DNA of 64,000 nucleotides, from assembly GCA_943356445.1 (NCBI GenBank), contig CALREZ010000003.1, forward strand, positions 6,125 through 70,124, given 5' to 3'. This document shows, piece after piece, positions 47,750 to 50,700 of the stretch. Within the stretch, counting starts at the first letter, position 1. Every line of letters starts with the position of its first letter. The notes below the pieces were generated by a model. The model did no database searches, was not told where the DNA came from, and was given only the letters and a program-made list of their open reading frames with translations. This DNA is from Candidatus Nomurabacteria bacterium (GTDB lineage: Bacteria; Patescibacteriota; Minisyncoccia; Phycocordibacterales; CAIJYI01). Position numbers and translations under genes: made by a program.

Positions 47750-50700
47750 AATCGATATATTAGTACTTCTCGGCTCAACGCCTCGCGGCGCTTACACCTA
47801 AAGCCTATCACCTAATCATCTCTTAGGGATCTCAAACGATTCCTCATCTTGAAGCTGGCTTCGATCTTAGATGCTTTCAGATCTTATCCATTCCCGACAT
47901 AGTTACTCGGCGGTGCTCCTGGCGGAACAGCCGATACACCAGAGGTCAGTTCATTCCGGTCCTCTCGTACTAGGAACAAATCTTCTCAAGAATCAACGCC
48001 TGCAGTAGATAGGAGACCAACCTGTCTCACGCATGATATCATTCATTACTGAATGCATTGGACTATAATATAATCGTGGTTAATTTTTAAGATTAACGTT
48101 AGATCGTTGACGTTTAGTCTCTACGGGCGATGTAAACATCTTCCCTCGGTATCGTCCCAGTGGGATTTCACCGATATAAGTCAACTTGATACAAATAGAT
48201 TTCTCTACTTGACCGCCGTGATTTGATTGATACTATCTCTTTTATTATTACTTCATTTAGACGAAATTCCTCGCGGGATTCAAACTGTTCATAAACCGTA
48301 GTCTATTACAGATTTGATATCTCTCCGCGTTATTTCTATATATTACACTTTGTGGATGTACCGTTTATAAACGGTTTGAACCCAGCTCGCGTATCTTTTT
48401 AATTGGCGAACAGCCAAACCCTTGGGACCTTCTCCAGCCCCAGGATAAGATGAGCCGACATCGAGGTGCCGAACTCCGCCGTCGATATGGACTCTTGGGC
48501 GGAACTAGCCTGTTATCCCCAGAGTAGCTTTTATCCGTTGAGCTTCCCCCGCATCTAATGCGAAAGGTCGGATCACTTAGCCCCGCTTTCGCGGCTGCTC
48601 GAGATGTACCTCTTACAGTGAAGCCAGCTTATGCCTATACACTATCGGCACGGTTTCCATTCGCGCCTAGCTGACCTTTGGGCTCCTCCGTTACTTTTTA
48701 GGAGGATAGCGCCCCACTAAAACTGCCCACCAGATACTGTCTCCGTTCGTTTTTGCCGAACAGGTTAGTGTATGCCCCGAAACAGAGTGGTATTTCACTG
48801 ACGGATCAACAACAGCCAAAACCATTGCATCAAATCCTCCCACCTATGCTACGCAGTCACAAAACATACACAATATCAAGCTACAGTAAAGCTTCTGGGG
48901 TCTTTTCGTCTAACTGCAGGTAGCCGGCATCTTCACCGGCACTGTATTTTCACCGAGCTACTCCCCGAGACAGTTCCCCAGTCATTACGCCATTCGTGCA
49001 CGTCGGAATTTACCCGACAAGGAATTGCGCTACCTTAGGACCGTTATAGTTACGGCCGACATTCACCAGGGCTTATAACAGCCAGCTTGATATAATCGCA
49101 CCACCGTTATTTGACCTTCTGGCATTGGTCAGGCGTCACCCCCTATACATCCTCTTGCGAGTTCGCAGGGAGCTGTGTTTTTGATAAACAGTTGCCAGGG
49201 AAACTTTCGCTGCGGCCGGCACCTTCTTTCAAATTTCTTAATTTAAAAGAAGAGCTCAGCTTTACAAAATTTCTCTTCTATGAACTTTGTCTCGTCTCGT
49301 TGTTTTTGTCGCTGACACCGCTTTCAGAAAAAATCTGAAAGAAGGTGCCGGCAAGCCTTATCCCGAAGTTACGGCTGCTTTTTTGCCGAGTTCCTTGGGG
49401 AGCAATCACTCGTTCGCCTTGGTCTTCTCGACCTGACTACCTGTGTCGGTTTACGGTACGGGTTCCGTGCATTTATGCTTAGAAGTTTTTCTCGGAAGCC
49501 TGCTCTGTCATATTCCTCAGGGTTTCCCCTAAAGTCTTCGCTCTTCTTGAGTTCTCCACTAAAGGACGTTCCCCGGATTTACCAAAGGAACTCTCTCAAA
49601 GCACGAACGCAAATCCAATAATGCGCACGACATACAAAACTTCGTCACTCCATCGCAATGCAAGGAAGTCATGGAATATTAACCATGTGTCCATCGGATG
49701 CGGCTTTCGCCATCTCCTTAGGCCCGACTAACCCTTCGCTGATTACCATCGCAAAGGAAACCTTAGTCTTTCGGCGCGCGGGGATCTCACCCGCGTTGCG
49801 GTTACTTGTGCCAACATTCTCACTTCTTGACGCTCCACCATGGGTCACCCCTTTGGCTTCACTGCAGTCAAGAACGTTCTCCTACCACGCCCAATCTCCG
49901 AAGAAATTGGACATCCTCAGTTTCGGTACTACGTTTAACCCCGATCATCTTCGGCGCAAGATCTCTTAGTGAGTGAGCTGTTACGCTTTCTTTAAATGAT
50001 GGCTGCTTCTAAGCCAACATCCTCACTGTCTGAGAAATTTCACCTCCTTAAGCGTACTTAACGTAGATTTAGGGACCTTAAATGGAGGTCCGGGCTGTTT
50101 CCCTTTTGACCAATGGAGCTTAGCCCCCACAGTCTAACTGCCGAGTAATGGCTTCCGGTATTCGGAGTTTGATAGAGTTGACGAGATTGCTCCCTGTTCA
50201 ACTCTTCCAGTGCTCTACCCCCGGAAGGTAACCTCGACGCTAACCCAAAAGCTATTTCGGAGAAAACCAGCTATTACCTGAATCGATTAGCTTTTCACTC
50301 CTTGCCTCAAGTCATCCGATAGTATTGTACGGCTAACCGGTTCGGGCCTTCTTTCGCCTTTCGGCGAAATGCACCCTGCTCAAGGCAAGCTCTTCAGGCT
50401 TCGGGTCTAATGTGTAATACTAACGCGCTATTAACACTCGGTTTCCCTGCGGCTCCATCCAGTAACGGACTTAACCTAGGCAATACACATTAACTCGTTG
50501 GCTCATTCTTCAATAGGCACGCCATGACGGGACAGCAAGCTGCCCGCTCTGACTCCTTGTAAGCATATGGTTTCAGGATCTATTTCACTCCCCTCACCGG
50601 GGTTCTTTTCACCTTTCCCTCACGGTACTTGTTCACTATCGATCTCTAAGAGTATTTAGCCTTACCGGTTAGTTCCGGCAGATTCCCCCAGGCTATTCGT

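Follow-up and report, generated by a model that had tools for sequence, protein, structure and literature searches.

Introduction

In the candidate phyla radiation (CPR) of bacteria, group I introns that lie at position 2593 of the 23S rRNA gene and lack an open reading frame (ORF) go back to an observation by Brown et al. (2015, cited in PMC11270868). Tsurumaki et al. (2024, PMC11270868) report insertions in 82% of 348 CPR 23S genes; 433 CPR 23S insertions are group-I-like and 222 of these lack an ORF, counted across all sites. Position 2593 (23IS12 in that survey) is named among the frequent group I sites, often with LAGLIDADG_1. The same site holds the classical L2593 introns, namely the Chlamydomonas chloroplast intron Cr.LSU with its endonuclease I-CreI and the cyanobacterial introns of Synechococcus/Thermosynechococcus; in the latter, a P7.1/P7.2 extension of about 65 nt is combined with P5 and P2 helices that are both short (Haugen et al. 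2007, PMC1995217).

Here we analyze an insertion at this site in the only 23S rRNA gene of a 64-kb stretch of contig CALREZ010000003.1 (hereafter the window), whose host, judged by sequence, is probably a CPR bacterium. The insert is beyond reasonable doubt a group I intron, and we consider it very likely that the whole explanation holds, namely an ORF-less group I intron after U2593 that would splice by the standard pathway and that carries a motif for binding its 5' exon. It resembles the CPR 23IS12 introns in site, group-I-like character, absence of an ORF and probably kind of host, and differs from them in nothing essential; relatives at the site encode single-domain LAGLIDADG_1 enzymes (PMC11270868). 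The window intron is thus a further member of a well-documented kind, and as introns at 2593 with or without LAGLIDADG are catalogued in hundreds of CPR genomes, this copy by itself adds little. The sections of the survey used here classify introns by Rfam and describe no secondary structure, guide or exon-anchor helix (PMC11270868), and it is these that we describe below.

Results

The insertion and its boundaries

The full-length 23S rRNA gene lies at 47741-51145 on the minus strand (2421.5 bits with the Rfam large subunit (LSU) model) and measures 3405 nt against the 2925 positions of the model. Around the site, the LSU model finds 343 nt in place of 4 model positions, between ...AAACCGUU and GACAG...; the alignment is clean up to ...GGGUUCAAACCGUU and resumes at GACAGGUUGGUC.... 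Pairwise MAFFT alignment with Escherichia coli K-12 rrlB, in which nt 2593 is the T of AACGT and nt 2594 the C after it, places a single 339-nt insertion after nt 2593, corresponding to window positions 48032-48370. The site lies in helix 93, beside the peptidyl-transferase center. Read on the RNA strand, the 5' exon ends with ...GGGUUCAAACCGU (last U at 48371), the insert runs from UUAUAAAC... at 48370 to ...AUAUCAUG (AUCAUG; final G at 48032), and the 3' exon begins with CGUGAGACAG at 48031. Excision yields AAACCGUCGUGAGACAG, with the restored junction AAACCGU-CGUGAGACAG, also written AAACCGU-CGUGAGAC (here and below, the hyphen in a junction marks the splice site).

An earlier note on this DNA had proposed that an insert with these very coordinates splits the 23S gene near position 2593 and that its removal restores conserved 23S sequence; both alignments agree, and the insertion lies exactly after U2593. 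The splice mark drawn in that note within the consensus, AGAACGTC-GTGAGACAG, is one base off, whereas its coordinates and its remark that the exon ends with U imply the correct AACGT-CGTGAG. The insert is poorer in G+C than the exons (35% versus 49%) and contains no ORF longer than 39 amino acids on either strand. Two separate ENA assemblies (ERZ27280322 and ERZ27280321) agree in every base of the 3814-nt 5S-23S stretch including the intron, and the insert is therefore not an assembly accident.

Group I core and relatives

Rfam model RF00028 (group I introns) matches 48039-48239 over its full length (model positions 1-253) with 38.9 bits and E=1.4e-8 when 441 nt are searched. This score lies under the curated gathering cut-off of 50 bits, at which the model has no match in the entire window, so that a whole-window Rfam scan does not list the insert. 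The search suggested in the earlier note thus returned a significant E value at a sub-threshold score, and for this reason our group I assignment rests on homologues, covariation and a family-specific model, all of which bear out the identity that the note had put forward.

Relatives were collected by looking, in a single genome of each species, for 23S genes whose 5' exon is not followed by C2594, which gave at least 120 loci (three-digit L numbers below; four-digit L numbers denote insertion sites). Among the loci listed, at least about 102 carry an insertion of 213-840 nt exactly at L2593, ending with G before CGUGAGACAG (a terminal G is present in about 100 of the 102). Most listed hosts are metagenome-assembled genomes (MAGs) labelled Patescibacteria, Parcubacteria or Saccharibacteria, and a second group comprises Acidimicrobiia and others. 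Homologues of the window intron, sharing ACGGCGG and GUAGAGACU, make up 65 of the about 102 listed L2593 introns; we refer to them as family A. By blastn and nhmmer, family-A introns are 67-80% identical to the window intron (best E=7e-25), and four of them at the same site (L025, L116, L099 and L108) exceed the RF00028 cut-off with 50.8-58.4 bits. The 23S gene of the window is at most about 86% identical to that of any listed locus, the closest being L058 (a MAG labelled Candidatus Paceibacteria) and L069 (a MAG labelled Candidatus Vogelbacteria). No match to the intron was found by blastn in a phage collection.

We built a covariance model (R1) from 22 relatives of other genomes, leaving the window sequence out. 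R1 aligns end to end with 48032-48225 (157 bits, E=2.2e-39), and this is its sole significant match in the 64 kb; a match at 5650-5808 (11.6 bits, E=0.11), located inside a 778-amino acid ORF, was taken as chance. The structure of P2-P9 was derived from the window sequence, and its 50 base pairs were scored in 37 aligned cores: they form in 92% of cells, compared with 35-40% when the partners are slid by 1-3 columns. Compensatory changes occur in 37 of these pairs, with a covariation score of 0.48 versus 0.08. The P4 and P7 helices are invariant in the 37 sequences (in P4, positions are invariant or vary on one side only), and all 34 invariant positions of the aligned family are retained in the window intron. 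The P4-P6 and P3-P9 elements that the earlier note had suggested looking for are hence present with covariation, in a stretch that the LSU model treats as an insertion. The parts of the intron and its flanking exon segments are as follows.

48375-48383, minus strand: 5' exon nt -13 to -5 (GGGUUCAAA), target of the predicted anchor; complementary to intron nt 87-95.
48371-48374, minus strand: 5' exon nt -4 to -1 (CCGU), exon strand of P1, pairing with GCGG; U2593 is 48371.
48032-48370, minus strand: whole group I intron, 339 nt, 5' end at 48370 and omega-G at 48032 (LSU model, MAFFT, RF00028, R1).
48289-48370, minus strand: hairpin 'Pa', intron nt 1-82, outer stem UUAUAAAC with GUUUAUGA (fold; relatives).
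48276-48288, minus strand: exon-anchor motif ACAG-UUUGAAUCC, intron nt 83-95, core nt 87-95 (covariation with exon).
48221-48275, minus strand: remainder of the P1 loop, intron nt 96-150 (conserved blocks in relatives).
48212-48220, minus strand: guide CACG-GCGGU, intron nt 151-159 (invariant; complementary to the ligated junction).
48193-48210, minus strand: P2 hairpin with GAAA tetraloop (48200-48203); 7 of 7 pairs compensatory, 87-91% of cells paired.
48180-48185, minus strand: P3 5' strand GUUGAC, partner 48106-48111; 6 of 6 pairs compensatory, 94% of cells paired.
48146-48174, minus strand: P4-P5 domain, P4 UCGGUG/UACCGA (98% of cells paired) and P5 UCCC/GGGA (4 of 4 pairs compensatory).
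48125-48145, minus strand: P6/P6a hairpin GGGAAGAUGUUUACAUCGCCC with a 4-nt loop; 5 of 6 pairs compensatory.
48116-48121, minus strand: P7 5' strand GAGACU with bulged A, pairing with 48060-48064 (AGUCC); 5 of 5 pairs invariant in 37 sequences.
48106-48111, minus strand: P3 3' strand GUCAAC, preceded by the 4-nt J7/3 (AAAC) (alignment).
48073-48104, minus strand: P8 hairpin; proximal 3 pairs compensatory, 88% of cells paired, distal part not alignable.
48060-48064, minus strand: P7 3' strand AGUCC, following J8/7 UAUAUUAU (48065-48072); invariant A.AGUCC.
48040-48055, minus strand: P9 hairpin with GUAA tetraloop; 5 of 6 pairs compensatory, 97% of cells paired.
48028-48031, minus strand: 3' exon nt +1 to +4 (CGUG), P10 partner of CACG (complementarity); C2594 is 48031.

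The 5' strand of P7, which would form the guanosine-binding helix, fits the RF00028 consensus AGACUAAA / UAUAGUC; its sequence presumably resembles that of IC3 tRNA-Leu introns, and we assign no subgroup. P5 of the window intron is short and lacks P5abc. As J7/3 consists only of AAAC and a single hairpin (P8) separates the P3 3' strand from the P7 3' strand, the intron has no P7.1/P7.2. By eye, extra hairpins are present between P7 and the P3 3' strand in the L2593 introns L103, L029 and L061. In IA introns this place is taken by P7.1/P7.2, and L2593 relatives with such hairpins have core blocks in common with the window intron.

Guide sequence, P1 and P10

The sequence ACGGCGG is invariant in all 37 aligned introns and the guide ends 1 nt 5' of P2. 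CACG-GCGG (intron nt 151-158) is complementary to the ligated junction CCGU-CGUG: P1 is predicted to form between exon (A)CCGU and GCGG(U) (nt 155-159), with a G.U wobble at U2593, and, by sequence complementarity, CACG (nt 151-154) would form P10 with 3' exon CGUG. The earlier note had anticipated a P1 U:G pair and a terminal G. Both are there, yet the partner of the U is the GCGG guide 155 nt downstream.

We compared exon position -4 with the guide in the 65 family-A and 27 family-B introns listed, family B being L2593 introns of other phyla. The two covary: all 65 family-A introns, and L088 as well, have C facing a guide G, and in 26 listed family-B introns exon -4 is A and the guide carries U (exon ...ACGU, guide GCGU). 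In the family-B introns L071 and L082, a U-to-C change at 3' exon position +3 (CGUG to CGCG) goes, by eye, with an A-to-G change in the adjacent guide.

P1 proper comprises only 4-5 bp. The guide lies 54-265 nt from the splice site in the listed family-A introns (150 nt in the window), compared with 7-17 nt in family B, L029 and L061. Two other candidates for P1 were rejected. A local hairpin ACCGU/ACGGU (exon -5 to -1 with intron nt 7-11) puts a U-A pair at the splice site and is not conserved in relatives; if the anchor motif described below is taken as the guide, U-1 faces a variable base (A, G or C) and position -3 is usually mismatched, whereas GCGG is invariant and also explains P10.

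An exon-anchor helix in the P1 loop

The expanded P1 loop of family A always opens with a hairpin at intron nt 1, variable in length and sequence among relatives at the position of Pa, followed by a motif (A)ACNG-UYUGAAYCC that is complementary to the 5' exon GGGUUYARACCGU. In the window, the motif UUUGAAUCC (nt 87-95) is predicted to pair with exon nt -13 to -5. Where the exon varies among the listed family-A introns, the motif follows: position -6 shows 42 G:C, 20 A:U, 2 G:U and 1 A:C combinations, and position -8 shows 62 C:G and 3 U:A. The pairs from -13 to -5 are present in 91-100% of sequences, and position -3 is mismatched in 43 of 57. A full 9-bp run with the intron's own exon is found in 61 of 70 introns, compared with about 6 for shuffled or other-site exons. 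When exon -16 to intron nt 97 is folded, a single long hairpin results (exon -13 to nt 95) that passes through the splice site (-29.6 kcal/mol, z=-3.6). On the covariation between motif and exon, the predicted exon-loop helix is real, and we infer that it would serve as a tether, holding the 5' exon beside the short P1 through a second exon-binding site. We read the near-systematic mismatch at -3 as leaving CCGU free for the actual guide.

Intron nt 72-84, which could be taken for a duplicate of the exon-intron junction, instead form the complementary strand of the long stem (nt 1-8 with nt 75-82). The remainder of the P1 loop (nt 96-150) contains a conserved GAGG block, GAGAUAGUAUCAAUC in place of the usual family block AAGACAUCAAU, and a small hairpin UUUCGU/AUGAAG; folded alone, this segment is no better than its shuffles (z=0.12). 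As a side observation, AGAC of this region could pair with GUCU of the anchor in an alternative fold.

This design is found at a second site as well. Introns of the R1 type follow E. coli U2262 (CUCCU-CCUAAAG) in L147, L156 and several other loci (L132, L007, L043, L058, L065 and L067). L147 and L156 are the nearest relatives without an L2593 intron, and carry another insertion near L1931. Each of seven distinct L2262 introns (and an identical eighth copy, in L156) has a hairpin and, after it, a 9-10-nt motif that can pair by complementarity with the exon of that same intron. The exon and motif differ together in the following combinations.

L2262 exon GGGGCGCUAU, motif AUGGCGCCUC: compensatory.
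L2262 exon GGGGCGAUAU, motif AUGUCGCCUC: compensatory.
L2262 exon GGGGCGCUCU, motif GGAGCGCCUC: compensatory.
L2262 exon GGGGCUGUA, motif UGCAGCCUC: compensatory.

Introns at L2500 and L2656 of these loci have ordinary short P1 loops. A small hairpin whose loop, UUUAAUCCA, is conserved comes after the L2262 anchor motif in L147 and L132. We tentatively suggest that rRNA group I introns of a large clade in the CPR, the window intron among them, may possess a second exon-binding site, a 9-10-nt motif in an expanded P1 loop that would come after a hairpin beginning at intron nt 1, pair with exon nt -13 to -4/-5, be retuned for each site (L2593, L2262) and accompany a minimal 4-bp P1; as part of the same tentative proposal, the anchor at L2593 would also go with loss of the P7.1/P7.2 domain.

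Endonuclease genes and mobility

In family A, an ORF of 143-173 amino acids is present in introns of about 700 nt, and its protein products match Pfam LAGLIDADG_1. The ORF starts 11-17 nt after the 5' strand of P6 in 7 of 8 relatives checked (upstream of P6 in L056) and ends in or just beyond the invariant G-UAG-AGACU, whose conserved UAG is the stop codon in 5 of the 8 (L026, L054, L051, L105 and L061, in the J6/7-P7 block CCCG-UAG-AGACU). Coding and catalytic sequence therefore overlap. The closest solved structures are I-MsoI (E=1.4e-32, 373-residue entry), I-CreI (about 4e-19) and I-CvuI, enzymes that we take to cut the same rDNA site. The link to I-CreI drawn in the earlier note thus holds with regard to the site and to the enzymes that ORF-bearing relatives encode, and the copy in the window has no such ORF, as the note had also stated.

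L6 of the window intron is a 4-nt loop at the place where relatives hold the LAGLIDADG gene, and no LAGLIDADG gene was detected in the 64-kb window (none by hmmsearch, nothing below E=0.1 by tblastn). The 58-nt ligated junction is uninterrupted in 32 metagenome contigs, and the nearest uninterrupted 23S genes share 92% identity with that of the window over their length and 97.8% across the junction region; the intron is hence optional among relatives. Given the gene in L6 of relatives and its absence here, the window copy is most likely a derivative that lost its endonuclease gene and was then inherited vertically. Its spread would presumably require an endonuclease provided in trans.

Family-A L2593 introns are found in many MAGs with the label 'uncultured Candidatus Saccharibacteria' (L003, L006, L007, L013, L015, L018, L021 and others). 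Tsurumaki et al. (2024, PMC11270868) describe Saccharibacteria rRNA genes as almost free of introns; either loose labels or different sampling may account for the discrepancy. Beyond the CPR, L2593 group I introns of family B occur in MAGs labelled Acidimicrobiaceae/Actinomycetota (L017, L027, L030, L035, L036, L045, L052, L063, L068, L094, L109 and others are family-B examples) and in one Omnitrophica (L034). Family-B introns of about 740 nt usually hold an ORF of 150-206 amino acids, with LAGLIDADG_1 confirmed for L034 only, and ORF-less ones measure 282-379 nt. L103, the sole ORF-less family-B member examined, has an ordinary short P1 loop and the extra hairpins between P7 and the P3 3' strand mentioned above.

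Discussion

Compared with the classical L2593 introns, the window intron occupies the same site and likewise has a short P5. The core blocks UAUCGGUGAAA, ACCGAGGGAA, GUAGAGACU and UAUAGUCC are common to the window intron and the family-B L2593 introns; in its own family the endonuclease gene resides in P6, and the enzyme of its relatives is homologous to I-CreI, I-MsoI and I-CvuI. It is unlike the cyanobacterial L2593 type in its J7/3 (AAAC), in its 150-nt P1 loop with the anchor and in having no ORF. We thus regard it as a structural variant that is not typical of cyanobacterial-type L2593 introns. That a probable CPR bacterium carries it fits the intron-rich rRNAs that the earlier note had pointed to, 2593 being one of the frequent CPR insertion sites (PMC11270868).

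From its sequence, the intron would splice as follows. After folding of the core (P3-P9), exon (A)CCGU would pair with the guide GCGG(U) (nt 155-159), which places the G.U wobble at the splice site. Cleavage after U2593 would be the work of a free guanosine that occupies P7, and the terminal G339 would then take its place. CACG (nt 151-154) would hold the 3' exon CGUG as P10, and exon joining would restore an intact helix 93. The anchor UUUGAAUCC in the P1 loop would tether the 5' exon through nt -13 to -5.

Several observations speak against this explanation or dilute its support. The Rfam score of the insert is under the curated cut-off (38.9 versus 50 bits). The P2-P9 pairs were drawn on the window sequence and counted with that sequence included, which favors the model in the slid-partner control; R1 is free of this bias, since the window was left out of its building. 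The L2593 anchor motif was located by a seed pattern allowing at most 2 mismatches, so that the percentage of paired sequences is partly circular and only the compensatory changes and the L2262 set are unbiased. Partners sought for the conserved GAGG and AAGACAUC blocks (anchor GUCU, a P8 strand and rRNA CCUCGAUGUC) showed no covariation. Moreover, reference 28 of PMC11270868 reports, by its title, that a 23S group I intron of Simkania stays unspliced. Finally, the splice-site U is paired with A in the long hairpin, and the helix could therefore hide the splice site.

This last point leads to the main alternative for the role of the exon-loop helix, that is, splice-site masking. The helix would then act as a brake that hides the 5' splice site until a certain assembly state of the core or of the ribosome lets GCGG invade, and would time splicing relative to 23S folding. 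The predicted hairpin indeed crosses the splice site with one mismatch and with the stability given above; U-1 is paired in 50 of 57 sequences (mostly U-A), G-2 in 56 of 57, and in 14 of 57 the helix is paired at -3 as well. Yet -3 is mismatched in the other 43 and -4 in 15 of 57, which looks like selection weakening the part that competes with P1, and the L2262 anchors end at -4, leaving the splice site uncovered. We consider such a brake rather unlikely.

It is improbable that the intron is not self-sufficient, needing a host protein or trans-acting maturase, or that it remains in the mature 23S rRNA like the Simkania L1931 intron, even though it has no ORF, a P1 of only 4-5 bp and a sub-threshold Rfam score. 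None of the 34 invariant positions and none of the helices of its family, which has more than 60 members, is missing from it, and 339 nt retained in helix 93 at the peptidyl-transferase center would be hard to reconcile with function. In addition, CPR rRNA insertions are reported to be removed from transcripts (PMC11270868). Intervening sequences cut out by RNase III without ligation, giving a fragmented 23S rRNA, are known in bacterial 23S genes and are suspected at the CPR sites 23IS2 and 23IS4 (PMC11270868), and the LSU model treats the stretch simply as an insertion, as it would a lineage-specific expansion segment. Either of these would have to coexist with a complete covarying group I core, an invariant guide matching both exons and a terminal G, with homing endonuclease genes in homologues and with related 23S genes that lack the insert precisely at the junction, and we judge them extremely improbable.

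Returning to the tether, we found no description of an exon-anchor 5' architecture in a limited literature search, which is not proof of novelty. In group II introns, two intron segments, the exon-binding sequences EBS1 and EBS2, pair with the intron-binding sequences IBS1 and IBS2 on adjacent stretches of the 5' exon. The window intron would be alike in a two-part binding of the exon (guide to -4 to -1, anchor to -13 to -5), by analogy only, as group II introns are another ribozyme class with different chemistry and there is no homology. If real and functional, the anchor would be the group I counterpart of the EBS2-IBS2 contact. Extended guides have also been engineered into trans-splicing group I ribozymes, where, in the passages cited, extra pairing outside P1 holds a weakly bound substrate (PMC3895272, PMC6155759). 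Those guides are artificial; they extend the ribozyme at its 5' end and bind substrate sequence 3' of the splice site, whereas the motif in the window is natural, lies in the P1 loop and would pair with the exon 5' of P1.

If the helix tethers the exon, it would explain how these introns work with a 4-bp P1, and would offer a natural model of two-part exon recognition in group I ribozymes, which is of relevance to ribozyme engineering and to the adaptation of introns to new sites. On the practical side, default Rfam settings miss the intron, and its 23S gene may consequently be mis-measured, or split by intron-unaware pipelines.

Other features of the rRNA locus

The 5S rRNA gene (Rfam) lies downstream of the 23S gene at 47387-47494. 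Rfam finds no 16S rRNA gene in the entire 64-kb window, which includes at least 12.8 kb 5' of the 23S gene, and the rRNA genes thus appear unlinked or at least widely spaced. The 23S-5S spacer of the window has no tRNA, and the relatives L147 and L156 have two there. Between their 23S and 5S genes, Rfam reports a 112-nt tRNA match with 44.7 bits (L147 1381-1492, L156 3913-4024), which could be a tRNA with an intervening sequence.

Compared with E. coli, the 23S gene of the window contains further small extras: 58 nt near E. coli nt 277 (50813-50870), and 50, 30 and 14 nt around E. coli nt 1716-1766 (49293-49342, 49237-49266 and 49199-49212, respectively). At 14-58 nt, these are too short for introns and are probably lineage-specific helix extensions.

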